Below are positions 4,163 to 37,563 of a stretch of 49,368 bases of DNA, in pieces. The DNA comes from a virus. The notes beneath the pieces are model-generated. The model saw only the letters and a program-made list of their open reading frames with translations. It did no database searches and had not been told where the DNA came from. Position 1 is the stretch's first letter, and every line of letters begins with the position of its first letter. The translations under genes and the position numbers were made by a program. The stretch is from positions 1-49,368 of IMG/VR virus record IMGVR_UViG_3300034220_000009; one strand, given 5' to 3'.

Positions 4163-4188
4163 AAGTGTTCCTGTCTGCTTTCAGCTTA

Positions 4189-7100
4189 CTATTTCAGCCG
4201 AGGTTTGTCACTTGAACCCATATGACGCAAACGCGGGAGTACGACCCGGTGAAAGAAGTTCGGCTGACGGTATCGTGTCAGCAGCTTCGGCTTTTCGCGG
4301 TAGTAACTACCGCCAATATAGGCGACGCCAGTCTGACTTTGTTGAACGGTCGCATAGATACGGGATCGGCCGGTTTGAACATGAAGCGTCACCGCCTGCA
4401 CGCGAGCAATGGCAGTCTGTGGTCGGGAGTAGCTGGCTTGAACGCGCGCCGCGCCGAGCTGGTCACGGGAGGTGATCGCCTGCACGCGCGCGACGCCGGT
4501 CTGATGATACGTCTGGACGACTACGACGGTTGCCTTGCCCGTCTGATCCTGCGTAACGGTGATGTGGATACGAGCTACGCCAGTTTGCGCGCGCGAGGTG
4601 TTCGTAGTGGTCAAGACGTGGGCTACGCCGGTCTGGTCGCGCGTAGTGGTTCCCGTCAACCGAGCTACACCCGTCTGGTCGCGAGTAGCTATCGCAAGGA
4701 TGCGGGCCGTACCCGTCTGCGCCTGAAGATTGACAATCTGAACGCGGCTGACACCGACCTGATTCCTACTGCTGGTCGCGGTCAGGCGAGCTACACCTGT
4801 TTGATTTTGACTGATGATCGCCAGTATCCGAGATTTTCCTGTCTGGTCTTGCGTAACGGGCCGTTGGATGCGAGACACGCCTGATATATCTTGAGCAACG
4901 TAATGATCGATCTTGGATACGCCGGTCTGGGTGCGCGTGAATAAGACGGCGACACGAGAGACGCCAGTCTGGTCACGAGTCGTAATCAGACTACCGAAGT
5001 CGAGGTTGAAGTAATCCGTACCAATGACGTGTGTTAACAGTGCGACGCCGGTCTGGATGCGACTACCGAGAATGACGAGGTTGGCTGCTCCCGTCTGATT
5101 GCGCGTAGCGACTACCTGCACGCGAGCCGCGCCAGTCTGGTCGCGAGAGATCGTAGTAGCGATACGTGCTGTCCCCGTCTGAAGACGTACCGTGGCAGCA
5201 GTAACACGAGAGACGCCGGTTTGCGTACGCGGCGTGGAAGCGGTCAGTCTAGCCTTACCGGTCTGATCTTGTGTACCGGTCGCCGTCACACGGCTTTTGC
5301 CTGTCTGGACTTGAGCGGCAGAAGCGGTGATACGGCTACTACCGACCTGCGTCTGTGATGCCGTCGCGGTGATCCGGCCCTTGCCTGTTTGAGTTTGTAA
5401 GGCTACAGCCGTAATGCGGCTCTTGCCGGTTTGAGCCTGTCCGACCACACTACTAATGCGAGAAACACCAGTTTGAGTGCGCGACGTCGTAGTGTCACTA
5501 GTCAGGGTGTTGAAAGTGTCAAAATAGGCTACCGTAGTGCCGACTTCAGGCCCGTATGCGCCGGCTGCGATACGAAGGTTTATATTGGTGACAGCGAACG
5601 GAGCGGCAAGGCTGGCGTAATTCGTCCAAGAACTACCGTCAGTAGAGTAATCCCAGTAGATCGTGCCAGCAGACTCACGGATTCGGAAGAACTTATGCAC
5701 AGCCGAGTTATAGGCCGTATCGTTGCGTTGGTCAGAGTAGCTGCCGGACACCTGCTTTTGAGCGACCAGCATACCGCCACCGATGATCCAAGACAGGGTA
5801 TTGGAAGCGTCGAGATACACCTGAACCGCAACAGCCTGAAAAGTCGGCAAGGACTGGTTGCCGGCGTTGACGAGCTGCGAATAAAGGTAGCTGCCGGTGA
5901 GGTTATAGTTGTTGACGCTCTTGTATGTCGAGTACACTCCGGATGACGAGACGTTCCCTAGTTCAAGCTGATTGTTCTGTTCAGCCCAGTTGCTACCTTC
6001 CGTATTCCACTTAGCAGTGTCGCGACTGTTGTCGTTGAAATTGTCTGTCAATGTCTGCGCCAAAGGAAGCGTTATATTAGCCTTACCCGTCTGCGTACGA
6101 TCTACCACGGAGCCAAGAATATTGGATACACCAGTTTGCAAACGGGATAGGGTAGCAAAGACACGGGCGATACCGGTCTGAGTACGGGTGGTCGTCACTG
6201 TACCATCATTGACGTGGGAGAATACAGAGAGTCCGACAAACTGGATCGTCGTATCGGCTGCGGCGCTAAGGTTTTTCGGCGTTATGCGTACACGGAAGTT
6301 GGCATTTGATAGTTCACTGACCGTGAAAGCGTGTCCCCATGCAGTCGGGCCGCCACCGACTTTGTACGTCTCTATCGCCACATCACCAAGCTTATTGGTC
6401 GGCTTCGCCGTAGTCCAAGAGGAACCGCCGTCCCAAGACAGTTCTACATCAATAAGAACCTGCGACGCATCTGCACTAGCGATAGCTTTGATAGTCACTT
6501 CAATGTCGTCAATGGTATGCCCGGCCAAGTTCGTGATGCCGAAATCCTTCAGGGTGAAAGGGCTGTTGGTCGACACGTCAGTTCCGACCGCACTACTGGC
6601 GTCGTCCGCGTACACGTTGCTAATATTCGCCCACGCCGCCGCGACATTCTCGCTCGCGCTAGGAAGATAGCTGTTGCTTACGCCGTCATACGTCACCGAC
6701 AGCTGCGCGTCGTTGGAAGTCTCGGACATGTCTACAGACAATGTAGTGGTCAGACCGGGAGTGTGCATCACGAAGAGTACAGCGTTTCCGGGAGTCCACC
6801 CTGCACGACTTACTACGGTTTGAAGGATTGAAGATACGTCGAATTCATACCATCCATCAGGAAGATCGTCGGTACGAATCTGTGCCGCCGGAACAGATGA
6901 AGTCAGCGTACGAGAAGAAATGTCATTGACGGTAGTGGTCAATGCCGGCGCGGTGTCGGCGTCTTGCGCACTCAGACTCCATATACCACCAGAAGATGTC
7001 GCGACGCCAGAAAGCCGCAAACGTAACTTGGCAGAACGAATTGTCGCGCCCTGCGGAGCGGTCAAGCCGGTGAAACGAAACGCGATCCAACCGTAGCTAG

Positions 7101-17792: not shown

Positions 17793-18041
17793 CTATTGCT
17801 GCTTGTCGATCGTCGACGGATCGAGGTGATTGGCGAACGGATCGCCGCCATGCTGCTTCACAAGGGCCGTACCAAGACGCATCCGGCAGTCTTCGGCGTG
17901 ACGCTGGGCCAGTGTCAGCTCCGGCCCGGCCTGCGGGTGGCGGGCTGCCGCCAACTCTGAGATCGAATGTATAACATCAGTAAGTGTGCTGCGGATACGC
18001 TCAAGCTCCGCATCAAAGCGCTTCGTATTGTCTGCATCCAT
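17793..18041 (-). CDS. Hypothetical protein (82 aa)
   Basis: ORF just upstream of terL. It is helical and too small, with no HTH seen, to call a small terminase. Confidence 0.5.
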   Translation of the reverse strand: MDADNTKRFDAELERIRSTLTDVIHSISELAAARHPQAGPELTLAQRHAEDCRMRLGTALVKQHGGDPFANHLDPSTIDKQQ

Positions 18042-18070
18042 ATAGTTCTCCTTTATGTAGAGTCAGTATA

Positions 18071-18292
18071 TCACCGCCGTTGGTAGTCGGCGTCCGCGAT
18101 ATGATCGTCAGCGGTCTGAAGCGCGCGGACGGAGATTCCCAAGTGGGATTCTTCTGCCGGTTTAGCGTCAATCGCCAGAGACTTCAGCAGTTCTATCAGA
18201 TCATTCGTGACGGCACGGGCCGTCCGGTAGGCTTCTTTTCGGTTCTGAATATTATGCACAAGAAAATAGTACCACGCCGCCGGATTTGTCAC
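18071..18292 (-). CDS. Hypothetical protein (73 aa)
   Basis: ORF with a 4-nt overlap to the upstream gene. Confidence 0.5.
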   Translation of the reverse strand: MTNPAAWYYFLVHNIQNRKEAYRTARAVTNDLIELLKSLAIDAKPAEESHLGISVRALQTADDHIADADYQRR

Positions 18293-18531
18293 GATAGCTT
18301 ATTCTCGATCCGGCGTGTCGCCGCCATATCCTTCTCAAGATTCTCGTGCATCCGGGTAGCGTCGAGGTTCTGACCACGCACGATGATCAGCGCCAAAAAG
18401 ATCGCCAGTTCAGAGATGAACGACAGATACTCCCGGCCGATGATCGTGTGTGCCAGCGTCCAAACGAAGAAGAGGCCAACGGCCCAAGTTGAGCCGATGA
18501 CCTCCGTCGCGCGGGAGAAGAGGCTGTCCAT
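18289..18531 (-). CDS. Small membrane protein (80 aa)
   Basis: Two hydrophobic segments: VIGSTWAVGLFFVWTLAHTII and FISELAIFLALIIV. Confidence 0.55.
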   Translation of the reverse strand: MDSLFSRATEVIGSTWAVGLFFVWTLAHTIIGREYLSFISELAIFLALIIVRGQNLDATRMHENLEKDMAATRRIENKLS

Positions 18532-18668
18532 TCCCTCAGTTTACACTAGGGCTTCCCATGAGAGCTATCTTCACTTTCGGATAAACCGATGGGCTGACCA
18601 TAAGTCTGTTCTCTATCAGATAGAACGGAAGATCAGGCTGCACAGTCCGCTTGCGGTGGCGTTTCATA

Positions 18669-19052
18669 TCAGCAGCTTTTCATGCAGATCGTCTCTTCGA
18701 CAATCGGTTGGATCGGCTCTGCCGGTTTCTGAGCAGGAGCCGGTTTGGTAGCCGGTGTCGGCGGTTGTGGAGTAGGAGCGGTCACGGGAGCCGGCGCTGG
18801 AACGGGAGCTGGTACTGGCGCGACCTGTGGCGGTGGGGCCGTCGGCTGTACGGGCGGCGTCACTACCGGACAGTCCTTCTTACAATTGGGTTTTCCACAG
18901 TTCTGCTTCGGCTCTTCCTTGCCAGTACATTCCTTTTGTTCAGCCACCGGGGGCGAGGATGGTGATGGAACAGTGGCTTCGACGGCAGCGGTGACGCCGA
19001 ACGCCAGCGTCAGCGCGATCATCAGTACAGAAATCTTGTTGTTAATCTTCAT
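18669..19052 (-). CDS. Secreted proline-rich, cysteine-containing protein (127 aa)
   Basis: N-terminal signal-peptide-like MKINNKISVLMIALTLAFGVTAAVEA, then PxP-rich low complexity with seven Cys (CTGKEEPKQNCGKPNCKKDC...ICMKSC). Confidence 0.65.
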   Translation of the reverse strand: MKINNKISVLMIALTLAFGVTAAVEATVPSPSSPPVAEQKECTGKEEPKQNCGKPNCKKDCPVVTPPVQPTAPPPQVAPVPAPVPAPAPVTAPTPQPPTPATKPAPAQKPAEPIQPIVEETICMKSC

Positions 19053-19067
19053 AGAATCTCCTTTTAT

Positions 19068-19190
19068 TTAATCACTTATGTACATCATAGCCCCGAACAC
19101 GGCCAATCCGATCAGCACGCCGGCAGCCCCGGAGGACTGAAGCGCGGCCAGTACTATCCCGCCGATCAGCATCAGACAGAGGAACATCCA
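19068..19190 (-). CDS. Possible very small membrane protein (40 aa)
   Basis: MFLCLMLIGGIVLAALQSSGAAGVLIGLAVFGAMMYISD. An upstream in-frame GTG at 19211 is also possible. The long 105-aa ATG version overlaps the KGG gene and looks off-frame. Confidence 0.3.
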   Translation of the reverse strand, partial: WMFLCLMLIGGIVLAALQSSGAAGVLIGLAVFGAMMYISD

Positions 19191-19197
19191 CGCGCCA

Positions 19198-19404
19198 TCA
19201 ACGCTCACTTGCCACCGCCTTTCCACGCCGGGAGATGCGTCCACCCTTCGCGCCGGCGATCCGGGCCAGCTCGCGGTTGCTGAAGAAGCCGCCAGTCGTA
19301 CCCGCCTTCCCACCCATCGCGCCGATCCTCGCGTAAAAGTCAGCGCCATACTTCTTCTTGTTCGTCTCGGCGGCGCTGCGTCCACCTGTTTTTGTTCCTG
19401 CCAT
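19198..19404 (-). CDS. KGG-repeat (YciG/GsiB-like general stress) protein (68 aa)
   Basis: GGRSAAETNKKKYGADFYARIGAMGGKAG and FFSNRELARIAGAKGGRISRRG match the stress-induced KGG repeat pattern (G-x-RGFASM...A-x-K-GG), from memory of the family. Confidence 0.6.
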   Translation of the reverse strand: MAGTKTGGRSAAETNKKKYGADFYARIGAMGGKAGTTGGFFSNRELARIAGAKGGRISRRGKAVASER

Positions 19405-19430
19405 ACAATCCTTTCGTTATTGCACTTATC

Positions 19431-19760
19431 CTACTCCACGCACCGACGGTCTTTTTTCTTGTCGAAGCACTGGCCGATGGAATTGCCGTGGGGGCAGAGC
19501 TTTGTTTTTTTAGCCTTTGAAGCCGGTGGCTGCATCGGCGGGATACTCATGCCTTCGATCTCCGGTACGGCCATCGGAATCACGCCTTTGTCAGTCAATG
19601 GTGTCTTTTCGATATCGGCCAGTCCATCGATATCCGTTTGCTTCATGGCGTAAATACGATACTGCTGATCACCGCGAACTATCGTAACTGTTTCGCCGGT
19701 ATCGGCAGCATCAAGGGCTTCTTTCAATTTCTGACGTAGGTTCCGGACGTTTATGATCAT
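19431..19760 (-). CDS. Phd/YefM-like N-terminal domain protein, putative DNA-binding regulator (109 aa)
   Basis: MIINVRNLRQKLKEALDAADTGETVTIVRGDQQYRIYAM resembles the antitoxin-fold N-terminus. The C-terminus carries CPHGNSIGQC...C. ATG 19760 is chosen because the 21 upstream codons are translated GTGTACAC palindromes. Confidence 0.5.
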   Translation of the reverse strand: MIINVRNLRQKLKEALDAADTGETVTIVRGDQQYRIYAMKQTDIDGLADIEKTPLTDKGVIPMAVPEIEGMSIPPMQPPASKAKKTKLCPHGNSIGQCFDKKKDRRCVE

Positions 19761-19823
19761 GTGTACACAGTATCGTAGTGTGTACACACTTGCAAGGATT
19801 TTTGTGTACACACCCGTGTACAC
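19761..19823. promoter_or_regulatory. Operator-like array: four GTGTACAC palindromes
   Basis: GTGTACAC at 19761, 19780 (within the 12-bp palindrome GTGTGTACACAC), 19804 and 19816 (CGTGTACACG). They abut the start codon of the Phd-like gene. Confidence 0.7.
19767..19795 (-). promoter_or_regulatory. Putative leftward promoter giving a leaderless mRNA
   Basis: Minus strand: TTGCAA (19795..19790), 17 nt, TACTGT (19772..19767), then 6 nt (gtacac) and ATG at 19760. Two palindromes overlap it. Confidence 0.45.
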
Positions 19824-19862
19824 GGTACTGTGGGTCTACTCAAAAAATTTTCTAGCTATATA

Positions 19863-20330
19863 TAACAGGGGTCAGATAGGCATACTTGAAATTTTTTGTA
19901 GGTATGGGGGCGGTGAGGAGGCTATCTATATAGATATCGACACCGGCCGCAAGCTTTTCCGGGTGGCGGGGGGGTTCGAGGTCGCCTGTTGACAAGAGGT
20001 TAATATCATTACAGAACGATACACTCACCCCTGTTAAAGATGATGTATATACACGGCCATAATGGGCGGCATACGCTACAGATGGCACGAAATACGGGGC
20101 GCTGACCCCTGTTAGCGTCGCACATTCATCATTGTGCGCCTTCAACGCCAACGCATCACCTTGAGACACGACCATTAACAGGGGTGGAAGCAGGGCGAAA
20201 TCCATTCACCCCCGTTGAATGTCCGCATAATCTACCCATTGATTAACACTCATATACACACGATCTATTTGTATACGTGTATGTATATATGTGGATAAGT
20301 TAGCACGGGCTGGATTCGTAACCCCTGTTA
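19863..20330. repeat. Iteron array: five exact ACCCCTGTTA 10-mers in both orientations plus one degenerate copy
   Basis: Plus orientation at 20027, 20105 and 20321. Minus orientation (TAACAGGGGT) at 19863 and 20176. Degenerate ACCCCCGTTG at 20208. Confidence 0.85.
19923..19936. repeat. 14-bp perfect palindrome TATCTATATAGATA
   Basis: Read directly. It sits between A/T tracts (AAAAAATTTT near 19846, AAATTTTTT near 19890) in the control region. Confidence 0.8.
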
Positions 20331-20340
20331 CTCTACGTTG

Positions 20341-20370
20341 TCCGCACATTGGTATTGACAATCTCCGCAC
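20341..20370 (+). promoter_or_regulatory. Pair of TCCGCAC heptamers (23-bp spacing) flanking the -35 of the early promoter
   Basis: TCCGCAC at 20341..20347 and 20364..20370. An inverted partial copy GCGGACA lies at 20392..20398. Confidence 0.7.
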
Positions 20371-20383
20371 GCTGGCAGATACT
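20355..20383 (+). promoter_or_regulatory. Rightward early promoter (sigma70-type)
   Basis: TTGACA (20355..20360), 17 nt, GATACT (20378..20383). It is the first plus-strand signal upstream of the early operon. Confidence 0.65.
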
Positions 20384-20460
20384 AGGGGCTAGCGGACAGG
20401 CAGCCACCGCCACCACCGATACAAGGGGTAAAAACAGGCAGCACACACACAAATACTAAT

Positions 20461-20495
20461 ACGGCTCATCAATCGAAGTTAAGCCGTTTAACAAT
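20461..20495 (+). promoter_or_regulatory. Leader hairpin plus boxA-like TTTAACAAT upstream of the first early gene
   Basis: ACGGCT (20461..20466) pairs with AGCCGT (20482..20487). It is followed by TTTAACAAT (20487..20495), then GGAGG and ATG at 20511. Confidence 0.5.
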
Positions 20496-20510
20496 CTGGA
20501 GGTCATCACA

Positions 20511-20669
20511 ATGCGTGATATCTACCCATCAATCAAAGCACGGCAGGATAGCCGGACAGGATTGACCCAGCGGCAGATGGCAATCATTGACGGCATGTAC
20601 GGCGCTTGCGTCGTCATCAGCATGACGGTCATCGGCTGGACGGGATACACCCTACTAGCGCTAATCTAG
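20511..20669 (+). CDS. Small membrane protein (52 aa), first early gene
   Basis: GGAGG lies 8 nt upstream of the ATG. MRDIYPSIKARQDSRTGLTQRQMAIIDGMYGACVVISMTVIGWTGYTLLALI. It is below the ORF-track size cut-off. Confidence 0.6.
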   Translation: MRDIYPSIKARQDSRTGLTQRQMAIIDGMYGACVVISMTVIGWTGYTLLALI

Positions 20670-20740
20670 CGGAACGCTAGGCCGCCGGAACACTCCGGCA
20701 GCCTGTGGGCTTCACTAGTCCAGTACATTCACAAACAATA
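20667..20740 (+). repeat. Conserved early intergenic cassette, copy 1
   Basis: TAGCG-GAA-CGCTA (20667..20679). Hairpin GGCCGCCGG-AACACT-CCGGCAGCC (20680..20703). Then TGTGGGC, CACTAGTC (20713..20720) and TACATTCACAAACAAT (20724..20739). Confidence 0.85.
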
Positions 20741-20741
20741 A

Positions 20742-20755
20742 TTGCGGACAGATTG
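20742..20755. repeat. Inverted repeat A, left arm (TTGCGGACAGATTG)
   Basis: Perfect reverse complement of 21079..21092. It extends to 17 bp if one G-U pair is allowed. Confidence 0.9.
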
Positions 20756-20778
20756 TCAATCATAACGAAAGGACAATC

Positions 20779-21054
20779 ATGTTAGTACCAATTATCGAGC
20801 AAATGGAAGTCAGCGACATACATGCTTTAATCGGCATGAGCGTCATACTATTTGTAAAGATGCGGCTAGCAGGCGTGGACGTTGTAGTAAGCGGCAGTTA
20901 CGATATTGCCACGAACAACTTTAGTCCTACAGCCATACAGCAGGACGCCAGCGATGCAGGCACAAGTATAAAAGACTTTTGCGAATCGATGGAATGGGAT
21001 ACCGTAGGCACTCGACGTGAGATACAGCTAGCTGTAAACAACCGAGACTACTAG
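20779..21054 (+). CDS. Early hypothetical protein (91 aa)
   Basis: AAAGGA RBS upstream. The ORF is bracketed by inverted repeat A. Confidence 0.65.
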   Translation: MLVPIIEQMEVSDIHALIGMSVILFVKMRLAGVDVVVSGSYDIATNNFSPTAIQQDASDAGTSIKDFCESMEWDTVGTRREIQLAVNNRDY

Positions 21055-21078
21055 CAGCACGTCACCCATTGTGGGTGG

Positions 21079-21092
21079 CAATCTGTCCGCAA
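21079..21092. repeat. Inverted repeat A, right arm (CAATCTGTCCGCAA)
   Basis: Reverse complement of 20742..20755. Confidence 0.9.
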
Positions 21093-21108
21093 GCGAAAGG
21101 GGTAATCC

Positions 21109-21252
21109 ATGGGTATGACCTATGAATTGCAAGGCACTTTACCAACCGTACGGACTCTGACAGCGGAGGACTACGCATTTATAGATGCGTGCGCCACGCC
21201 TTACGAGCCTATGCCGACAGTATCGGCGGCAGATATGGCGGTGGCACTATGA
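21109..21252 (+). CDS. Early hypothetical protein (47 aa)
   Basis: AAAGGGG RBS. MGMTYELQGTLPTVRTLTAEDYAFIDACATPYEPMPTVSAADMAVAL. The stop overlaps the next start (ATGA). It is preferred over the GTG-extended frame of ORF 21189..21617. Confidence 0.5.
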   Translation: MGMTYELQGTLPTVRTLTAEDYAFIDACATPYEPMPTVSAADMAVAL

Positions 21253-21617
21253 AGGCGTTTAACTTCATCACGATGACAGAGTACGGCGGCCGCAACGCAC
21301 TGTTGGAAGGCAACGGCGATTTACCGGCGTTTGCATCATTCAATCAATTGCGTGATAGCGGCTATATGGTGAAAAAAGGCGCAAAATCCGTCAGTATCTT
21401 TTGCGGCTATCGCCAGCGGAAGGATAAGACAACAGGCAAGATGACGACAGTACCCACGTCCGGCCGAGTGTTCGACATCATCGACACGACCGCCGCCGAC
21501 GATAAGGGATATATAAAACATCTGAAGGCCGAAATCAAAAAAGGTAGGGTCAAGCCATCGCCAGCCGAAGCCGAAGCAATGGCAGGGGCGGCAGTGATGG
21601 AAGCATTGACAGCCTAG
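21249..21617 (+). CDS. ArdC-N (DUF1738)-like ssDNA-binding/antirestriction-type domain protein (122 aa)
   Basis: GGRNALLEGNGDLPAFASFNQLRDSGYMVKKGAKSVSIF resembles the ArdC N-terminal pattern (...G-x-N...-F-x-Q-...-G-x-V-x-K-G-E-K), from motif memory. Confidence 0.45.
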   Translation: MKAFNFITMTEYGGRNALLEGNGDLPAFASFNQLRDSGYMVKKGAKSVSIFCGYRQRKDKTTGKMTTVPTSGRVFDIIDTTAADDKGYIKHLKAEIKKGRVKPSPAEAEAMAGAAVMEALTA

Positions 21618-21686
21618 CAGAGCGCTACAGCGCCGGAATACTCCGGCACTGTATGGGCTTTACTAGTCCAGCACATTAAAACTAAT
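21615..21686 (+). repeat. Conserved early intergenic cassette, copy 2
   Basis: Starts on stop codon TAG. TAGC-AGAGC-GCTA. Hairpin CTACAGCGCCGG-AATACT-CCGGCACTGTAT. Then TGGGC, TACTAGTC and CACATTAAAACTAAT. Confidence 0.85.
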
Positions 21687-21699
21687 CAGAGGTAATAGC

Positions 21700-21906
21700 A
21701 TGTACATAGCTATCAGCCAATTTAATGACGTGGTGGTTTTGAACAAGCACCCGCGCAAGGAATTGCGGGATCTATACGGCCGTTCGGAACATACGAAGAT
21801 ACAGAAAATGTATCGAGATAAGGCCGACGGCGGCAGTAAACACGTCGGTTACGTTATCGACGGCTTATGGTTCACCTTATTTGAAGCCAAGCCATACGAA
21901 CGATAG
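21700..21906 (+). CDS. Early hypothetical protein (68 aa)
   Basis: AGAGG RBS. ORF ends in the TAG of cassette 3. Confidence 0.65.
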   Translation: MYIAISQFNDVVVLNKHPRKELRDLYGRSEHTKIQKMYRDKADGGSKHVGYVIDGLWFTLFEAKPYER

Positions 21907-21979
21907 CGACGCACTACAGCGCCGGACACTCCGGCGTTGTATGGGCGGCACTAGTCACCCAGTACTTTAATAAACAAAT
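21904..21979 (+). repeat. Conserved early intergenic cassette, copy 3
   Basis: Starts on stop codon TAG. Hairpin TACAGCGCCGG-ACACT-CCGGCGTTGTA. Then TGGGC, CACTAGTC and TACTTTAATAAACAAAT. Confidence 0.85.
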
Positions 21980-21998
21980 CTTGTGCGCTCATTGTCAG
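21980..21998. repeat. Inverted repeat B, left arm (CTTGTGCGCTCATTGTCAG)
   Basis: 19-bp perfect reverse complement of 22264..22282. Confidence 0.95.
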
Positions 21999-22018
21999 TA
22001 ATAAGACAAGGGGCGTAT

Positions 22019-22243
22019 ATGTACAATCTAATCGATATCAGTCAAAACACGAACATTGACCAAGCGTCAGAGCTTGTGGACTTGTTCCGCAAGCTGGACA
22101 AATACACCGAAGCAGGCAAGCCGGTAGTCATCGTAAAAGATGGCGAAATCAAGGCCGGTAACAGTCTGGCGTGGTCATGGTCAAGGGTTCATGACTTTCA
22201 GATAGGCGAGGGCATGGAGTACCGGCCATATACGAACGATTGA
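22019..22243 (+). CDS. Early hypothetical protein (74 aa)
   Basis: ATG 22019 is preceded by AAGGGG. The ORF is bracketed by inverted repeat B. Confidence 0.65.
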   Translation: MYNLIDISQNTNIDQASELVDLFRKLDKYTEAGKPVVIVKDGEIKAGNSLAWSWSRVHDFQIGEGMEYRPYTND

Positions 22244-22263
22244 TACACGCCAGCGGTTTACCG

Positions 22264-22282
22264 CTGACAATGAGCGCACAAG
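22264..22282. repeat. Inverted repeat B, right arm (CTGACAATGAGCGCACAAG)
   Basis: Reverse complement of 21980..21998. It is preceded by the local hairpin CAGCGG-TTTA-CCGCTG (22251..22266). Confidence 0.95.
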
Positions 22283-22316
22283 AGTAAGGGCGAAAGCCTA
22301 GAAAACGGAGCAAATC

Positions 22317-22721
22317 GTGATAGAACCTCTGACGAAATCAGAACGGGAAGAAACGGCGGCCGAATTGCGCAAGCTGTTACGTGGGCATCATGAGATATTG
22401 ACACTTGCGGAATGGCGAGGTAGCACGGCATATGTACGGCTATTCATCGTCAAACACAATCGACTGATTAACATCACGTCAAATGCAGGTGTGGCGATGG
22501 GCGAACGCATCAGCCACCGGCCAAGTCAGCCGTACGGATTCAAACGGGGCGGCTACGGATACGGACGTGAGTTTGATGTAGTGTACGGACTAGGCCGGAC
22601 GCTGTACCCAAAAGGCCACAAGCACACCGTGAAGCATTGTCACAGCAACGATCATAGCAACGGCGACAAACGTGCATGGCATCCTGACGGCGGTTACAAA
22701 TTTAATCAGCGAAGTATCTAA
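22317..22721 (+). CDS. Early hypothetical protein (134 aa)
   Basis: GTG start with GGAG 7 nt upstream. His/Gly/Lys-rich C-terminal half. Confidence 0.6.
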   Translation: MIEPLTKSEREETAAELRKLLRGHHEILTLAEWRGSTAYVRLFIVKHNRLINITSNAGVAMGERISHRPSQPYGFKRGGYGYGREFDVVYGLGRTLYPKGHKHTVKHCHSNDHSNGDKRAWHPDGGYKFNQRSI

Positions 22722-22951
22722 TGGCAGATAGCAAATACTATCAGGTAGTGCGATTCAGTCAAAAAAACGGACGTGGCAGAGTGCAGGCCAAGAATCTTAC
22801 GCTAGAACAGGCGAGAAAATGGTGCAATGACCCGCAAACGTCCAGCCATACAGCGGACAAGCCGCGCGGATGCGGCGGCGATGAAGCGATGATACAGCGA
22901 TGGAACGAAAAAGATAAACACTGGTTTGACGGCTACGAACAAATGCGATAG
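22721..22951 (+). CDS. Early hypothetical protein (76 aa)
   Basis: TAATG overlap with the upstream gene. Ends in the TAG of cassette 4. Confidence 0.65.
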   Translation: MADSKYYQVVRFSQKNGRGRVQAKNLTLEQARKWCNDPQTSSHTADKPRGCGGDEAMIQRWNEKDKHWFDGYEQMR

Positions 22952-23020
22952 CGGCACGCTAGGCCGTCCCACAGCGGGGCGGCCAATGGGTGACACTAGT
23001 CATCGGAACATTTAAACAAT
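22949..23020 (+). repeat. Conserved early intergenic cassette, copy 4
   Basis: TAGCG-GCA-CGCTA. Hairpin GGCCGTCCC-ACAGC-GGGGCGGCC (different stem sequence, same pairing). Then ATGGGT, CACTAGTC and AACATTTAAACAAT. Confidence 0.85.
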
Positions 23021-23030
23021 AGGGGGCTGT

Positions 23031-23387
23031 ATGTCAAAAGACGTTGCAGTAATACGAGACAATGACGACAAGTATATGTATCTGGTCGGTACTGATTATC
23101 CGATTGATACGCCACGGTTGGAAGAGGTCGGATACAAGCTGGAGGGCTGGCTAAGGCATAGCGAACAGTGGCAGGCCGATGATGGTTTGTACGATAAATC
23201 GGAGCCGGATAACGACCTGCTGGACGATGAGTCATACCACGGACCGCTATTCACGAACTGTATGCACCAGGTCGACCCGAACGACAAGACAGACAGCGGA
23301 TTGTGCAATGTGATGATAGCAATGTCATATGAAGGCGGCGCGCCGACATATTGCACACCGCACGAAGAATTGCACGAAGACGAATAG
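23031..23387 (+). CDS. Early hypothetical acidic protein (118 aa)
   Basis: AGGGGG RBS. Ends in the TAG of cassette 5. Confidence 0.65.
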   Translation: MSKDVAVIRDNDDKYMYLVGTDYPIDTPRLEEVGYKLEGWLRHSEQWQADDGLYDKSEPDNDLLDDESYHGPLFTNCMHQVDPNDKTDSGLCNVMIAMSYEGGAPTYCTPHEELHEDE

Positions 23388-23454
23388 CGATACGCTAGGC
23401 TGGCCGAACTATCGGCCGGCCGGTGGGTATCACTACCCGAACATTAACAATTTT
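23385..23454 (+). repeat. Conserved early intergenic cassette, copy 5
   Basis: TAGCG-ATA-CGCTA. Hairpin GGCTGGCCGA-ACTA-TCGGCCGGCC. Then GTGGGT, CACTACCC and AACATTAACAATTTT. Confidence 0.8.
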
Positions 23455-23469
23455 AGTGGAGGTTTGCAC

Positions 23470-23682
23470 ATGCGGACACTTCTATCAAACATAACGCCGG
23501 ACTGGCGTGGTCAACTCGTAAGCGCATCCGATGAATACGATGCAGCACGGATAGGACGAGAGGTTAGTATCAAGTCGCTAGTCAGAGGACGACCGGCGCA
23601 CTATAGCGAGGAACGGAACGGCGAAAAGTGTAGCATCATAATCTATTGCTTCGGCAACGTCTACGAGTTGCGAGCGGCATGA
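23470..23682 (+). CDS. Early hypothetical protein (70 aa)
   Basis: ATG 23470 is preceded by GGAGG. The longer ORF from 23329 runs through cassette 5. Confidence 0.6.
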   Translation: MRTLLSNITPDWRGQLVSASDEYDAARIGREVSIKSLVRGRPAHYSEERNGEKCSIIIYCFGNVYELRAA

Positions 23683-23723
23683 GATATGGCTGGCAAGCGA
23701 TACTAGCGGCTGGCGCTATCTGG

Positions 23724-24026
23724 CTAACCGTCGCCGTCAACACTGTCCGACGGCTGGCCGGTTGAGCAAACGGCGTTCATACAAACCCCATTAACTTCTA
23801 CACGAGAGCAGGCCGGACACAATCCGGCCTGTATCTTTTTATCATCAATGATCGCGGAGCGTCGCTGGCGGTAAATGCGCTTCGGAGCCTTACCCATATC
23901 ATCCATATGCAGCCGCACGAGCCTGTCACCGTACGCTATATCAACATATGCGCCGGTGTCACGCATGAGCCGGGTGAATATGTGGAAGTGTTTTTTAAAC
24001 TGATACAGCGTCAAGGGGCGCGCCAT
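23724..24026 (-). CDS. Hypothetical protein (100 aa) with C-terminal Cys cluster
   Basis: CPACSRVEVNGVCMNAVC suggests a zinc-ribbon-like motif. It is the second gene of the leftward island. Confidence 0.55.
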   Translation of the reverse strand: MARPLTLYQFKKHFHIFTRLMRDTGAYVDIAYGDRLVRLHMDDMGKAPKRIYRQRRSAIIDDKKIQAGLCPACSRVEVNGVCMNAVCSTGQPSDSVDGDG

Positions 24027-24591
24027 TGTTCAGCCTTACGATTATCTGATTGATTGTAATAGTGTCACCGTTTTTGATAGCTTCGGCCAGTGTTTGTGCG
24101 GCGCGCGCGTCGGCGGCGGTAGGGGTAACGGAGCCAGAGGGAGCCACCGCGCCGGGGCCGTCCTTGGTCTGGTTGTGCATCTTCTCAGTGACTTGGAGTA
24201 CATCTTTGACTGACAACTCAAGCAAACCGGCTTTTTTCCGTTTGTAATCAGCAAGTGTCATGTCTCCGTTGCGATACTCTTCATCAATGGCTGACAACTC
24301 AAGCTCATCGCCTGCCGCCTGATCCAGTTTGCGGCTCAACAGTCGAAGTGACTTCGCTCTGATCCGCTCCGCTTCAGACGCTTCCGCCTGCACTACCGTT
24401 CTTTCGATCTCAGCAATGACTTCCGGATTGCGTTTGCGCAGCATGGACAGTGCGTTGTTACTGTACTCAACGCCGTAGTTGTCCAGCAGGAACTTCCTGA
24501 TCTGCTTATACTTCTCGCCTCGCACCATCATGGCAAGGACTTGGATTTTCATAGGGTCGGTGATCTTTGGAGAGGTGAGCGCCTGGGTCAT
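23995..24591 (-). CDS. Putative HTH DNA-binding protein (198 aa), either a regulator or a small-terminase-like protein
   Basis: Start MTQALTSP at 24591, chosen because a -10 lies 6 nt upstream. The N-terminus KIQVLAMMVRGEKYKQIRKFLLDNYGVEYSNNALSMLRKR is HTH-like, followed by a coiled-coil middle. Confidence 0.5.
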   Translation of the reverse strand: MTQALTSPKITDPMKIQVLAMMVRGEKYKQIRKFLLDNYGVEYSNNALSMLRKRNPEVIAEIERTVVQAEASEAERIRAKSLRLLSRKLDQAAGDELELSAIDEEYRNGDMTLADYKRKKAGLLELSVKDVLQVTEKMHNQTKDGPGAVAPSGSVTPTAADARAAQTLAEAIKNGDTITINQIIVRLNNGAPLDAVSV

Positions 24592-24597
24592 GTGCCT

Positions 24598-24606
24598 AGT
24601 ATACCA
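24598..24606 (-). promoter_or_regulatory. Extended -10 promoter (TGGTATACT) placed for a leaderless mRNA
   Basis: Minus strand: TCCGCAC, 15 nt, TATACT, aggcac, ATG. The 6-nt gap between -10 and ATG is identical in length to that at the Phd-like gene. Confidence 0.5.
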
Positions 24607-24607
24607 C

Positions 24608-24636
24608 TTGCTCTTTAAGTGCGGATAGCGTATAAT
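24608..24636 (+). promoter_or_regulatory. Rightward promoter of the replication operon
   Basis: TTGCTC (24608..24613), 17 nt, TATAAT (24631..24636). The spacer contains GTGCGGA, the reverse complement of TCCGCAC. Confidence 0.5.
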
Positions 24637-24643
24637 GCAGCTT

Positions 24644-24687
24644 AACTTCAAGGTGTCGCAACCCTGAAGTTACATTCACAAAACAAG
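24644..24687 (+). promoter_or_regulatory. Leader hairpin plus ACATT/AACAA box (sixth box copy)
   Basis: AACTTCAAGG (24644..24653) pairs 9/10 with CCCTGAAGTT (24662..24671). It is followed by TACATTCACAAAACAAG. The 12-mer TACATTCACAAA is identical to cassette 1. Confidence 0.6.
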
Positions 24688-24735
24688 GGGTAATTTAAAA
24701 GCCGGCTATCCGAAGATGCCGGCCAAGGTGTCGCA
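24649..24735 (+). repeat. 12-bp direct repeat CAAGGTGTCGCA (two copies)
   Basis: Copies at 24649..24660 and 24724..24735, in the 5' leader of the replication operon. Confidence 0.85.
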
Positions 24736-24852
24736 CATATAGTGTAGCACACCGCCCTCGTAACACAAGATAGAGGGGGTAGCCTGAAAAAGAACAGTAA
24801 CGCGGAGGAAGCGCCACGGTACATACCGGACGCCTTCATCATTCCGTCGGCG

Positions 24853-25539
24853 GTGATGCTGGACGCTGAACTACAGCCGTTGGACTCGCGCGTGTACGGT
24901 ATCGTGCGGTGGCTGGAAACATTGAGCGCGGGAACGTGTACCGCGACCAACGCCACAATCGGCAAGTACGTCCACTCCAGCCCGAGCGGCGTCGGAAATT
25001 CACTTGTTAGACTACGAAACAGAGGATACGTCCACTGCCAATACGACGAACAGGGGTGGCGTACCGGCATTAACACCTTGATCCGCATGACCAAGACCCC
25101 TTACTCAAATGAGGAAGGGGGGGTTACTCAAATGAGTAATATAAAAGAGAACAATACTAAAGAGAATATATTGTCGATTTCGGACGATGAACTCACACTC
25201 GTCAACCGGCTCTACACTGGCTTCCTCATCGAATTCTATACCGACCGATCCCACTACTACGACGTGGCTGGTAAAGAAGAGCGTGACGCGATGGTGGCCG
25301 ACGCCACGAAGAAGTACCGCCTGACCGACAAACGTCGCGACCTGCTACTCCGTCGAATTAGGGACAAGGAAATCGGTTTTACGATGTGCCGGCAGGCGAT
25401 CAAGGGCTACGGATCGAGCGAGTTCCACCGTGGCGAGAACAACCGTAACTGGAAGGCTGATTTAGAGTTCATCTTTCGCAACTTCGAGAATATCGAAAAG
25501 GGTGCGAACAAATTTAAAGAAGGAGACGGTGATGGATAA
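24853..25539 (+). CDS. Winged-helix replication-initiator-like protein (228 aa or longer)
   Basis: LDSRVYGIVRWLETLSAGTCTATNATIGKYVHSSPSGVGNSLVRLRNRGYV is wHTH-like. The C-terminal GENNRNWKADLEFIFRNFENIEKG resembles phage DnaD/replication-protein C-termini. The frame is open from 24748, with an in-frame CTG at 24784 behind GAGGGGG. Confidence 0.55.
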   Translation: MMLDAELQPLDSRVYGIVRWLETLSAGTCTATNATIGKYVHSSPSGVGNSLVRLRNRGYVHCQYDEQGWRTGINTLIRMTKTPYSNEEGGVTQMSNIKENNTKENILSISDDELTLVNRLYTGFLIEFYTDRSHYYDVAGKEERDAMVADATKKYRLTDKRRDLLLRRIRDKEIGFTMCRQAIKGYGSSEFHRGENNRNWKADLEFIFRNFENIEKGANKFKEGDGDG

Positions 25540-25942
25540 GATCATCATACCGACAGTCCCAAAGATCGATGCACATTACGACCGCATAACCGGCGCTTAC
25601 CACGTCGAGTTTCCGGAAGGTGGCAAAGGTGACGTCTCTGACGGCTACCACACCTTCGATGATCTGTACCGCCACCGCTACGCGCTGTTCGTGGCACTGG
25701 CCGTCAGCTACCCGAACTTGTCGTGGTGTTCGCTGCTTCACGACGATGGTACGATGTTCGAGGACAGCTTCATCGTAGGCATGGACTTGCCAACCGGCAT
25801 GATCAGCTACCATCTTCCGATGCGCGAATATGAATGGGTTTCTAAGAAAATCAAAGTCATTGGCAACGCCCCGAAGTGGGACGGTCATACGCCAGAAGAC
25901 GTAATTGACCGCTTGAAGCGGTTTGTAACGGAGTATCAATGA
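25532..25942 (+). CDS. Conserved phage protein with WDGH motif (136 aa)
   Basis: GAAGGAGA RBS. The sequence contains APKWDGHTPEDVIDRL. Family assignment is from memory only. Confidence 0.5.
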   Translation: MDKIIIPTVPKIDAHYDRITGAYHVEFPEGGKGDVSDGYHTFDDLYRHRYALFVALAVSYPNLSWCSLLHDDGTMFEDSFIVGMDLPTGMISYHLPMREYEWVSKKIKVIGNAPKWDGHTPEDVIDRLKRFVTEYQ

Positions 25943-26370
25943 GTCATTTCAACACCCAGATGCAAGAAGAGGCAGAAGGCGCATGGCTGCCGGCCATACC
26001 GCTGCCATTGTTCGTCGAGGGCTGGTTCACCCGCTCTGTCGAATGTAGCGCCTGCGGCATGGGCTGCGGATCAGAAGAGAAGTACCGCTACCACTACCGG
26101 ACGGAACAGCTAAAGGAGGCGATGACCAGTCATGCCAGAACCGTCGAAATCAAAGACACCACCCTCGCTGTACTACATGAGGCGCTTGCGCTGGCTTCGG
26201 AAGATATAACGCGCGGCTGCCAACCCAACGTCGAACGTGAACCGGGCGAGCTGAAGGACTTCTACGTGATCCAAGCCCGACAGATGTCCCAGCAGCGCAA
26301 GCTGGCCCGACGTATGAACATCGATCCGGCACGAGTCGATGAACTCGCCCAAAACCTAAAAGATAGGTAG
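25939..26370 (+). CDS. Hypothetical protein (143 aa)
   Basis: ATGA overlap with the upstream gene. Contains CSACGMGC. Confidence 0.6.
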   Translation: MSHFNTQMQEEAEGAWLPAIPLPLFVEGWFTRSVECSACGMGCGSEEKYRYHYRTEQLKEAMTSHARTVEIKDTTLAVLHEALALASEDITRGCQPNVEREPGELKDFYVIQARQMSQQRKLARRMNIDPARVDELAQNLKDR

Positions 26371-26711: not shown

Positions 26712-26974
26712 GCAACTCTACGATGGACGATACGAAATTCACGATAACAGCGGCGACGCCTAGGCATATTGCCGATTCTTCCGGTGGAGACGCCGTGGGC
26801 TTCCAGCAGAACAAGCAAGCGTACTCGCTTGGCATGAACATCGCGAAGAAAAAAGGATGGAAGATCAAGGAACGGGACGGAATTATCGTCAGCACCTTGG
26901 AGATATACGTCTTTACCCGTGACGAGCTGAAGGAGTTCCTAAAGGATCGGAGCCACTGCACTCATGAAGTATGA
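26708..26974 (+). CDS. Hypothetical protein (88 aa)
   Basis: ORF overlapping both neighbours by a few nt. Confidence 0.6.
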   Translation: MSNSTMDDTKFTITAATPRHIADSSGGDAVGFQQNKQAYSLGMNIAKKKGWKIKERDGIIVSTLEIYVFTRDELKEFLKDRSHCTHEV

Positions 26975-27941
26975 CGTCATCATCATCGGAAGTGGCCCAG
27001 CCGGACTGTCAGCTGCCGTCAACGCGGCCAGCGAGGGGCTACACACGCTTGTTCTGGAAGCCAATGAGCAGCTTGGAGGACAGGCGGGGAGTTCTACGCT
27101 GATCGAGAACTACGCGGGCTTCCGTGACGGCGTGACGGGCGAAGACCTTGCCGCCGCCATGATCGACCAAGCGACGAAGTTCCGTACGCAACTCATCGCT
27201 CCGAGCCGCGCCTGCAAGATTCAGCACGAAGCCGGTGGGTACGTCATCACGGACGACATGGATGAGCAGTACCACGCCAGATCAGTCGTCCTAGCCAACG
27301 GCGTACAATACCGCCGGCTGCACGCGGACGGTATGAGCCGCTACCTTGGCCGTGGCGTCAGCTACGGATCTCCGACGCTGGCTGCCGACTTCTGCAACAA
27401 GAGCGTGTACGTCATCGGCGGGGCCAACTCTGCCGGTCAAGCGGCGATGCACCTGTCGAAGTGTACCGGCTGCACCGTGCATCTGGTAGTGCGTGGCAAG
27501 GCTATCGAGGACAAGATGAGCAAATACCTTGTCGACCGGATCAAAGCCTGTCCCAACATATACGTCCATACCGACAGCGAGGTTGTCAGTGTCAGTGGTA
27601 GTGATCGGTTGACCGGCATCGAAGTCCGTACCGACGGTGATACTTGGCGCGGCGGCGTGGACAGCCTGTTCGTCCTGATCGGCGCTGTACCGCGTACGAG
27701 CTGGCTGCACGCTGACATCAAGCTGGACGACCACGGCTTCATCAGCACCGGTGACGACGTGCGTATCCAAGGTACGGACGTATTCGGCCGACGACCTCAC
27801 CCGCACGAGACGACACTACCCGGTATCTTTGCCGCCGGCGACATACGCGGAGGGTCAATCAAGCGCTGCGCCGCTGCCGTCGGTGAGGGCGCGAGCGTGA
27901 TACACGAAGTTCATCAATACCTTGCGGAGAGCCAGAAGTGA
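26964..27941 (+). CDS. Thioredoxin-reductase-like FAD/NAD(P)-binding flavoprotein lacking the CxxC redox centre (325 aa)
   Basis: FAD motif IIIGSGPAGLSAA, NAD(P) motif VIGGANSAGQAAMHL and C-terminal GIFAAGD. Where TrxB has G-V-S-x-C-A-T-C-D-G, this protein reads GRGVSYGSPTLAADF. Confidence 0.8.
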   Translation: MKYDVIIIGSGPAGLSAAVNAASEGLHTLVLEANEQLGGQAGSSTLIENYAGFRDGVTGEDLAAAMIDQATKFRTQLIAPSRACKIQHEAGGYVITDDMDEQYHARSVVLANGVQYRRLHADGMSRYLGRGVSYGSPTLAADFCNKSVYVIGGANSAGQAAMHLSKCTGCTVHLVVRGKAIEDKMSKYLVDRIKACPNIYVHTDSEVVSVSGSDRLTGIEVRTDGDTWRGGVDSLFVLIGAVPRTSWLHADIKLDDHGFISTGDDVRIQGTDVFGRRPHPHETTLPGIFAAGDIRGGSIKRCAAAVGEGASVIHEVHQYLAESQK

Positions 27942-36989: not shown

Positions 36990-37307
36990 ATGTTAGACTC
37001 ACTAGTGTTCTGGGCTTCACATGCCCCTGCTTGGGAAATCCTCATCGTCGAAGCACTCGGCATATTGGTGGTGATTCATATGGTAGGCGGTGTCGTCCAT
37101 CAATGGAAGGAAGATAGTAATGAACCCGAAACCCACAGACAGCCCTCTAATCGCCCACGCCAAGCGCGAACTACGGTACGCGGAGCTGGATCAGAAAGAC
37201 GCCGATTATGGAGGGATGCTTGGAACGGCTACGTTAGCGCTAGTAAGACTCTTCGCCAAGCAGCGACATTCCGGAACAAGCGGCCAGATCACTCTCGCGC
37301 TGTTTAA
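36990..37307 (+). CDS. Questionable ORF: N-terminal transmembrane segment, then an Arg-rich tail overlapping the next gene
   Basis: AAGGAA RBS and MLDSLVFWASHAPAWEILIVEALGILVVIHMVGGVV look genuine. After 37120 the frame reads like an off-frame translation of the next gene. Confidence 0.25.
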   Translation: MLDSLVFWASHAPAWEILIVEALGILVVIHMVGGVVHQWKEDSNEPETHRQPSNRPRQARTTVRGAGSERRRLWRDAWNGYVSASKTLRQAATFRNKRPDHSRAV

Positions 37308-37563
37308 CAAGCTCGTCAACTTCCAACCGCTGACACCGATCACCGACGACCCCAAAGAATGGCGAGACGTCGGCAAGGAAATGTTGAGTACCGAAGACCG
37401 CATGAGCGGCAAGCAGATATGGCAGAATATCCGCGCCCCACACTGTTTCTCGAATGACTCTGGTAAGACGTATTGGAACTCGATGGACAACGAGTACAAG
37501 ATCAAGTCACAACCGAAAGGTGACAAGAGCTTCGATGATCCAACGCCGGAGGAATCGAAATGA
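37120..37563 (+). CDS. Hypothetical protein (147 aa)
   Basis: ATG 37120 behind GGAAGGAAG. Confidence 0.6.
   Translation: MNPKPTDSPLIAHAKRELRYAELDQKDADYGGMLGTATLALVRLFAKQRHSGTSGQITLALFNKLVNFQPLTPITDDPKEWRDVGKEMLSTEDRMSGKQIWQNIRAPHCFSNDSGKTYWNSMDNEYKIKSQPKGDKSFDDPTPEESK

Follow-up and report, generated by a model that had tools for sequence, protein, structure and literature searches.

In bacterial operons, the 16S and 23S rRNAs are flanked by long-range stems at which RNase III processes the polycistronic transcript, and the early operon of phage T7 carries a series of intercistronic RNase III sites, R0.3 to R1.3. The ideal substrate for the E. coli enzyme is a helix of 22 bp, that is, two helical turns (PMC3867540). 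Pairing across a single coding region is known from the icaR gene of Staphylococcus aureus, in which the 3'UTR pairs with the Shine-Dalgarno (SD) region, blocks translation and provides a substrate for RNase III (PMC3868564). Phages also carry intergenic elements of other kinds around small genes. The PeSL elements of T4-type phages combine a strong sigma70 promoter with a terminator, recur as direct repeats, and act via DNA recombination (PMC2839356, PMC4122927), while the copies of the MPME1/2 elements are near-identical and are marked by a 6-bp insertion at the junction (PMC3029335).

The locus described here lies in the early operon of an uncultured phage, where two inverted repeats each bracket one small gene. 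The initial annotation drew attention to the first of these (bracket A) and overlooked its twin at 21979/22264 (bracket B), which is the stronger of the two. It proposed that the arms of bracket A would pair in RNA as a long-range stem that loops out the whole cistron, with the geometry of the rRNA processing stems, and this is the reading that fits the evidence best, given the predicted dominance of the helices, their length, the existence of the twin and the structured operon around them. We give about an even chance to the view that the paired arms form long-range helices in the early mRNA, each of which loops out one inserted cistron. So understood, the brackets would extend two known kinds of element, the long-range stems processed by RNase III and the pairing of 5' with 3' UTRs exemplified by icaR (PMC3868564).

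The early operon and its two brackets

The window, by which we mean the whole 49,368-nt stretch that was analysed, represents all or nearly all of the genome of an uncultured tailed phage. Genes for the large terminase, a portal/adaptor-like protein, a capsid protein and an endolysin lie on the minus strand, and the plus strand carries the small early genes in a block, followed by helicases and an exonuclease. The terminase is 26-29% identical to those of Roseobacter, Lentibacter, Celeribacter and Vibrio ICP2-type podophages. Searches of 50,697 phage records with megablast and blastn gave no nucleotide match, and Pfam and PHROG scans of the large ORFs detected no phage RNA polymerase. An independent Logan contig carries the same sequence, the two assemblies being identical over 6.3 kb around the repeat. 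Because the two assemblies agree here, and because the arms are shorter than the assembly k-mers, an assembly artefact is an unlikely source of the repeat.

The early operon comprises about ten small genes. The features on which the analysis turns are as follows:

20355..20383, plus strand: sigma70-like early promoter (TTGACA-N17-GATACT), which drives the operon holding both brackets
20666..20741, plus strand: intercistronic cassette 1, a conserved irregular hairpin followed by the tail ACTAGTC..ACATT..AACAA
20742..20765, plus strand: left arm of bracket A, with a core at 20742-20758 (14 perfect pairs, one G-U, two more pairs) and an inner extension at 20760-20765
20779..21054, plus strand: ORF91 (91 aa), an orphan with its own Shine-Dalgarno, AAAGGA, at 20769-20774
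21061..21080, plus strand: small 3' hairpin of bracket A, core CACCCA-UUG-UGGGUG, -12.6 kcal/mol, with stop-N-CACG upstream
21069..21092, plus strand: right arm of bracket A, with a core at 21076-21092 and an inner extension at 21069-21074
21979..21999, plus strand: left arm of bracket B, 20 perfect pairs and one G-U, 21 bp in all
22019..22243, plus strand: ORF74 (74 aa), an orphan with a strong in-frame codon signal
22251..22266, plus strand: small 3' hairpin of bracket B, CAGCGG-UUUA-CCGCUG, -10.3 kcal/mol, with stop-N-CACG upstream
22263..22283, plus strand: right arm of bracket B, ending 33 nt before the GUG start of ORF134
23808..23842, plus strand: intrinsic-terminator-like hairpin with a T-run, which closes the early operon

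Cassette 1 is one of five paralogous cassettes in the operon, the further copies lying at 21614-21680, 21904-21978, 22949-23015 and 23385-23450. Each is an irregular hairpin of about 18-19 pairs that contains the TAG stop of the upstream gene within its base, and neither a sigma70-like promoter nor a T-run terminator was found in any of them. The cassette also occurs in related contigs with an ArdC-like protein 55-65% identical, and in 12 copies of the hairpin from four related phages compensatory changes were seen at 12 of the 19 predicted pairs. Because the cassette copies covary across four phages, structured intercistronic RNA is clearly a conserved property of this phage lineage. A scan of the sequence collection with the cassette pattern gave 22 single matches that are probably random, and a search of Rfam with positions 18000-26000 recovered no family, even at E = 1. 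Integron attC sites, CRISPR arrays and retrons were considered as identities for these repeats and rejected: no integrase, Cas or reverse-transcriptase gene was found, and the spacing of the repeats is irregular.

One layout occurs twice in the operon, namely a cassette, a left arm, an SD with its orphan ORF, a small hairpin, a right arm, two overlapping resident genes and another cassette. Bracket A begins right after cassette 1, and bracket B follows immediately on the cassette at 21904-21978. When four cassette-to-gene junctions are aligned, the left arms stand out as additions of about 20 nt between the cassette tail and the SD.

The anatomy of bracket A is as initially annotated. The sequence TTGCGGACAGATTG (20742-20755) is the exact reverse complement of CAATCTGTCCGCAA (21079-21092), and in plus-strand RNA the helix reaches 17 bp (20742-20758 with 21076-21092) by way of the single G-U pair U20756-G21078. 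The arms, 323 nt apart, start just past the tail of cassette 1 and enclose one Shine-Dalgarno sequence and the ORF at 20779-21054, the whole segment measuring 351 bp. What the annotation had not included is that six further pairs (20760-20765 with 21069-21074, two of them G-U) follow beyond a 1x1 A/G mismatch, so that helix A has a total of 23 pairs and one mismatch. The left core ends 20 nt upstream of the AUG of ORF91. The right arm, whose inner end is overlapped by the small 3' hairpin, ends 16 nt before the AUG of a conserved gene pair, ORF47 and an ArdC-N-like gene.

Bracket B lies 1.2 kb downstream of A and is a perfect 20-bp inverted repeat, TCTTGTGCGCTCATTGTCAG at 21979-21998 with its complement at 22264-22283. 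It encloses the next-but-two cistron, ORF74 (22019-22243), with the same geometry in a segment of 305 bp; its arms are 265 nt apart, and the left one ends 19 nt upstream of the AUG at 22019. The spacings of A and B correspond, with 20 and 19 nt, respectively, from arm to AUG and 21 and 19 nt from stop codon to arm.

Both enclosed ORFs are orphans: a search of 5.8 billion proteins returned for each of them no match but itself. Pfam and PHROG gave no match to either, and the two are unrelated to each other. An AlphaFold model of ORF91 from the single sequence was uninformative (pLDDT 43), and no loci related to ORF91 or ORF134 were found in IMG/VR. Because the in-frame codon usage of ORF91 and ORF74 is typical of this phage, they are probably real genes and not non-coding RNA; given the clear in-frame signal in both ORFs, the idea that the enclosed segments are themselves non-coding RNAs was rejected. 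The minus strand of the interior of bracket A has no coding signal.

Predicted pairing between the arms

Considered by itself, the bracket A repeat is marginal, barely above chance, because 8.5% of dinucleotide-shuffled windows hold a perfect inverted repeat of at least 14 bp within 400 nt (mean 0.085, against two observed). Its setting is less ordinary. The entire 49 kb contains three perfect inverted repeats of at least 13 bp within 1500 nt, and all three fall in 19860-22290. Furthermore, the arm pattern TTG-N7-ATTGTCA occurs window-wide only at the four arms described here, apart from one-mismatch matches at chance level; it is absent from all of the relatives' sequences that were fetched, and the left- and right-module patterns gave no match among 2.9 million viral contigs in IMG/VR. 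Given the twin bracket, the clustering, the arm pattern and the partner specificity described below, the bracket A repeat is non-random.

In computed folds, which will predict pairing for any perfect repeat of 14-21 bp and which ignore ribosomes and co-transcriptional kinetics, helices A and B are both present in the minimum-energy and the centroid structures of the isolated segments, with whole-segment z-scores of -4.0 for A and -8.4 for B. The partition function of a 2-kb transcript (20390-22420) assigns most pairs of the two helices probabilities of 0.92-1.0, the pairs below this range being the outermost one of each helix and one in the extension of A (0.76).

The specificity of the arms was assessed by scanning each of them against every 31-nt window of the plus strand, and each left arm proved to have one outstanding partner. 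For the A left arm this is the A right arm, at -35.0 kcal/mol, with the runner-up at -27.5. The two B arms reach -39.5 kcal/mol with each other, and their next-best partners -27.1 (right arm) and -25.0 (left arm) kcal/mol. Cross-pairs between A and B are weak, in the range of -12 to -17 kcal/mol. When all ungapped helices in the window are ranked, B comes first and A third, and on the transcribed strand they occupy the first two places. No other helix in the ranking has both of its arms in intergenic positions around a single ORF; by this measure the energy of helix A (-28.5) is barely above that of the best coding-region background (-27.8). Both helices grow past the perfect DNA repeat through G-U pairs only, at positions where an antisense RNA would have A-C mismatches. 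A pairing of the leader (20385-20412) with 21066-21096, at -34.8 kcal/mol, was also considered and is not significant, because the G-rich right arm is promiscuous and finds background partners down to -33.5.

The two brackets resemble each other in ways that go beyond their geometry. Alignments link the left flanks of the two brackets, and likewise their right flanks, both of which have stop-N-CACG followed by a 6-bp hairpin. Between these two 3' hairpins (CACCCA/TGGGTG in A and CAGCGG/CCGCTG in B) there are three compensatory pairs. A comparison of the stems themselves, meaningful as a count of compensatory change only if the brackets share ancestry, gives 17 homologous positions, of which 11 are identical pairs, five have changed on both sides yet remain paired, and the last is G-U in one stem and A-U in the other; broken pairs number 0 of 17. 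Between A and B, 5 of the 7 core positions are different, and within each bracket the core is a perfect match to its own partner.

A candidate long-range helix around each inserted cistron

The favoured reading can be set out as a sequence of steps. A polycistronic mRNA running from the promoter at 20355 to the terminator at 23808 would carry both helices, and each of them would close a loop of about 270-320 nt containing one ribosome-binding site, one lineage-specific orphan cistron and one small 3' hairpin. Between each arm and the nearest start or stop codon there are about 20 nt, which should roughly clear the footprint of a ribosome, and translation of the enclosed gene should therefore leave the helix unmelted. 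Host RNase III would be expected to cut the helices, because they come near to the ideal two-turn substrate of 22 bp, with 23 pairs in A and 21 in B. Were the helices to form in vivo and be cleaved in this way, the accessory cistron would be excised as an mRNA of its own with paired ends, and the conserved downstream pair would be left beside the cassette that originally preceded it (ORF47 and the ArdC-N-like gene in the case of A, ORF134 and ORF76 in the case of B), with a presumed effect on expression. Because each bracket has a private core, its arms would pair with each other and not with those of the other bracket, and mispairing between A and B would be prevented.

The brackets resemble the rRNA stems in geometry. 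In both systems complementary segments hundreds of nucleotides apart can make a helix of about two turns that loops out one unit of a polycistronic transcript, and the segments that flank the enclosed genes here give a helix in or near the range of 20-22 bp (17 bp, a 1x1 mismatch and 6 bp in A; 21 bp in B). The brackets differ from the rRNA stems in that what they would loop out is a cistron of about 300 nt that is translated into protein, where the rRNA stems enclose a structural RNA. They are also near-perfect duplexes without the known features of rRNA stems, they are not conserved across relatives, no orthologous bracket having been found in any relative identified, and they are at this point candidate RNase III sites. 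Like the T7 early operon, the locus would give an early polycistronic phage mRNA, transcribed by the host RNA polymerase, in which structured elements lie between the cistrons and would give rise to individual mRNAs. It is the five neighbouring cassettes, as local irregular hairpins between cistrons, that resemble the T7 arrangement; the T7 sites are local hairpins with internal loops, whereas the bracket arms lie 265-323 nt apart on either side of a cistron. As in icaR, the segments on either side of one coding region would pair with each other across the ORF and so form an RNase III substrate that controls the gene. Unlike the icaR case, the SD is inside the loop and outside the helix, so that it is not occluded (the SDs at 20769-20774 and about 22007-22012 are at least 10 nt from the helix), and the unit is embedded in a polycistronic phage transcript.

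The early operons of phages rapidly gain and lose genes for anti-defence and host takeover, and how a new gene is slotted into a tight polycistronic mRNA without disturbing its neighbours is poorly understood. If the brackets are RNase III-cleaved helices with gene-specific codes, they would constitute a simple and transferable way to insulate an inserted cistron and to tune it separately. Control by 5'-3' pairing, known from single bacterial mRNAs, would then apply to units within phage operons too, and a compact design rule for synthetic operons would follow. A more ambitious version of the model, which we put forward tentatively and think rather unlikely, is that the brackets are portable RNA-level cassettes for newly acquired orphan genes, each with a private 'address' core, from which RNase III excises every orphan cistron individually and so restores the context of its neighbours. 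Modular gene insulation of this kind at the mRNA level would be a mechanism not described for phages.

Origin of the brackets and competing explanations

When the ArdC-like neighbour was used as a query, relatives were found at only 38-65% identity, and none of them has brackets. A scan for long-range helices in the early operons of relatives with an ArdC-like protein at 55-65% identity (about 37 kb) gave best values of -17 to -22.5 kcal/mol, none of them comparable to A or B; the bracket feature is not conserved in this phage group. In two of the relatives (L033 and L038), a small membrane-protein gene directly adjoins the ORF47-like and ArdC-like genes, with neither cassette nor bracket at that site. 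Because these genes abut, the region of cassette 1 and bracket A is a family-level indel, which can be read either as an insertion in this lineage or as a loss in others. In addition, removal in silico of 20742-21092 or of 21979-22283 leaves a canonical cassette-to-SD junction like those at cassettes 2, 4 and 5, and these junctions support the impression that the brackets have a cassette-like origin. The brackets are known from a single genome, and the covariation described above is between paralogues. Two independent inverted duplications would yield the same picture as the compensatory changes between A and B.

These observations bear on the possibility that the arms are insertion scars or cassette ends, that is, terminal inverted repeats or boundaries of a portable gene cassette with no present function in RNA. 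The cassette envisaged would consist of arm, SD, ORF, hairpin and arm, placed between an intercistronic cassette and a resident gene. The orphan status of both enclosed genes, the clean junctions left by deletion and the state of the site in L033 and L038 are all to be expected on this account, and precedents exist in MPME1/2, ultra-small phage elements of 439 bp with inverted repeats (PMC3029335), and in the PeSL cassettes present on either side of ORFans in T4-like phages (PMC2839356). Against it, the sequence shows no target-site duplication and no extra sequence at the junctions, and the unrelated interiors and differing arm cores make a single transposase for both elements unlikely. Pfam and PHROG scans of the ORFs of at least 150 aa, some of which encode proteins of unknown function, revealed no recombinase, integrase or transposase domain. 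The absence of the module patterns from 2.9 million viral contigs and the phage-typical codon usage of the enclosed ORFs also speak against such an element, and neutral remnants would not be expected to keep 17-21 bp of pairing with five compensated differences. On balance we regard the scar explanation as unlikely. If the brackets are cassette ends after all, an unrecognised mechanism of gene acquisition would be indicated. An origin as scars is compatible with a function of the arms in RNA.

Closer comparison with the two precedents shows that the brackets recall both in origin and have the defining features of neither. As with PeSLs, repeated intergenic stem-loops flank small orphan genes in a plastic early region that varies in presence and absence among relatives; in contrast to PeSLs, the cassettes and arms have no detectable promoter, the cassettes have no T-run terminator, and the arms are inverted and private to each gene. 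As with MPMEs, elements of 300-440 bp in a phage genome have short inverted-repeat ends and hold one small ORF. The brackets differ from MPMEs, and from MITEs generally, in their unrelated interiors and differing arms, in the lack of a junction signature or flank duplication, and in having no other copies in the window, in the relatives' loci or in IMG/VR.

A separate set of observations concerns the early promoter, to which the initial annotation had linked the arms through a shared -35 module and a proposed TCCGCAC regulator site. The likeness to the -35 module was confirmed. The promoter -35/spacer module ATTGACAATCTCCGCAC resembles the arms, and the minus strand of the A left arm, TGATTGACAATCTGTCCGCAA, which can be set beside GTATTGACAATCTCCGCAC at the promoter, shares ATTGACAATCT with 20355-20383 and then, after a 2-nt indel, CCGCA. 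Written as modules, the arms read TTGACAATCT(GT)CCGCA in A and CTGACAATGAGCGCAC in B, and the promoter reads TTGACAATCTCCGCAC. The regulator stays in the realm of speculation, as the arm module has no solitary copies and the core of B differs. The window contains exactly five copies of the 8-mer TGTCCGCA, of which four fall within 20220-21091, and the motif is present in untranscribed DNA upstream of the promoter as well; one-mismatch copies at 20362 and 20391 flank the core promoter as an inverted pair. The mRNA helix model leaves both the likeness of the arms to the -35 module and these upstream copies without explanation.

An alternative that takes them into account is that the arms are paired DNA operators, copies of the -35/spacer module at which a phage or host regulator would loop the DNA or block elongation. 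The clustering of TGTCCGCA and the near-copies around the core promoter favour such sites, and a parallel exists in the stoperators of cluster A mycobacteriophages, which are asymmetric intergenic sites with a primary operator that overlaps the -35 element (PMC3029335, PMC9283540). The cores, which differ between A and B and match within each pair, show the pattern expected of pairing strands rather than of sites for a common protein. The four arm copies fall into two sequence classes and occur in both orientations, unlike stoperators, and neither the window nor the relatives contain a lone copy of the shared module. When one mismatch is allowed, the window as a whole has 50 copies of the 8-mer where 49.6 are expected, which is no enrichment; the arms are not followed by any consistent -10 element, and Pfam and PHROG identified no regulator or repressor gene. 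A DNA-binding regulator is possible, and we would place the operator reading second or third among the explanations, with a chance that we consider slim.

Several narrower suggestions about the arms were set aside. They are not themselves promoters, since inspection of every arm on either strand found no acceptable -10 at 15-19 nt from TTGACA/CTGACA. One match to the promoter consensus does touch an arm, TTGTCA-N16-AATCAT on the plus strand at 20753-20780, and it is implausible as a promoter because it ends on the start codon of ORF91. The L5 stoperator consensus GGTGGMTGTCAAG (PMC3029335) can be matched to the right-arm sequence GGTGGCAATCTGTCCGCAAG only with indels, and the match was judged a coincidence.

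The initial annotation also pointed out that, in DNA, the geometry is that of an invertible segment, in which a site-specific recombinase would flip the 351-bp segment and its 305-bp twin to switch a gene on or off. Beyond this geometry of identical-core inverted repeats around a short segment, the suggestion found no support. Unlike the Hin, Gin and Fim systems, the locus comes with no serine or tyrosine recombinase domain in the scanned ORFs of at least 150 aa, and nothing was found that would make both orientations functional: the ORF has its own SD and there is no promoter inside the segment, the reverse strand lacks a coding signal, and a flip would do nothing except silence an SD-bearing gene. 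Both independent assemblies hold a single orientation, and the G-U extensions of the helices would be meaningless in DNA. We consider inversion highly improbable.

Equally improbable is a chance origin of the 14-bp repeat, for which the frequency of such repeats in shuffled windows and the closeness of helix A to the top of the coding-region background might be cited: the partner scan is specific, the intergenic arms bracket exactly one ORF and the arm module is confined to the four arms, and pure chance is excluded because a 20-bp twin with the same geometry shares its anatomy, down to paralogous flanks and hairpin.

Inverted repeats around orphan ORFs

The inverted repeat around the orphan ORF91 (bracket A) has a paralogous, stronger counterpart, bracket B, in which the orphan ORF74 (22019-22243) is enclosed by a perfect 20-bp inverted repeat:

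21979-21998 / 22264-22283, arms of bracket B, perfect over 20 bp (21 bp counting one G-U)

This second repeat was absent from the initial annotation.

Window 20670-21108 was compared with L033 (4606-5001) and L038 (2059-2354), two loci of related phages fetched via the ArdC-like protein. In both relatives, the counterpart of ORF47, the gene downstream of bracket A, directly adjoins a small membrane-protein gene. This gene order argues that cassette 1 (the intercistronic hairpin element directly upstream of bracket A) and the bracketed ORF91 were either inserted specifically in this lineage or deleted from the other phages.

Between the early transcript's 5' end (20385-20412) and the right arm of bracket A (21066-21096), the predicted pairing energy is -34.8 kcal/mol, close to the -35.0 kcal/mol for that arm with its own left arm. 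The right arm is G-rich and promiscuous, with many near-equal partners, and its pairing with the leader is therefore probably not meaningful. The leader motif GCCACCGCCACCAC is common to the window phage (20403-20417) and its relative L001 (4713-4730), whose ArdC-like protein is 54% identical.

Intercistronic cassettes

Copies of a conserved cassette were located in the window and in three related loci.

Copies of the intercistronic cassette
Window: 20666-20741, 21614-21680, 21904-21978, 22949-23015, 23385-23450
L030: 479-540, 929-988, 1373-1442
L033: 5344-5410, 5645-5705, 6134-6197
L038: 3485-3545

Each forms an irregular hairpin of 18-19 pairs, with the TAG stop codon of the upstream gene within the hairpin base and a conserved GGG..CACTA(G/C)..ACATTAA on the 3' side. 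The cassette had no match in Rfam; compensatory changes were found in 12 of 19 pairs when four phages were compared. The element is a candidate for a role in RNA processing or stability.

Control region and early promoter

Repeats are densely packed in the window's divergent control region; the control regions of three relatives are listed alongside it:

19750-20390, control region, window
3883-4226, L029
3701-4145, L033
about 4530, L001

Three to four copies of TGTGTACACAC lie at 19760-19828, and ACCCCTGTTA/TAACAGGGGT is present in five copies, among which is a perfect 13-bp inverted pair (19863/20102). Conservation of the ACCCCTGTTA/TAACAGGGGT motif in the control regions of the relatives suggests that it may be an operator or an origin iteron.

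The early promoter is the focus of clustering of another motif, TGTCCGCA:

20220, 20339, 20362, 21084, plus strand
20391, 20743, 23471, minus strand

The copies at 20339 (plus) and 20391 (minus) form an inverted repeat on either side of the -35/-10 core. With one mismatch allowed, overall enrichment of TGTCCGCA was nil; the motif is a possible regulator site.

Genes beyond the early repeats

Beyond the terminator-like hairpin (23808-23842), two minus-strand ORFs run towards the end of the early operon, convergent with it:

23724-24651, minus strand, ORFs of 100 and 218 aa
24068-24041, minus strand, promoter-like site

Neither ORF had a family match, and the pair may constitute a regulatory or immunity module. 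Four further gene products in the window were notable:

21249-21617, short ArdC-N-like anti-restriction domain protein, early operon
26964-27941, thioredoxin-reductase-like flavoprotein
37090-37563, Tad3 (anti-Thoeris) homologue (E = 1.4e-30)
42901-46941, minus strand, 1346-aa protein with an LPD38 domain
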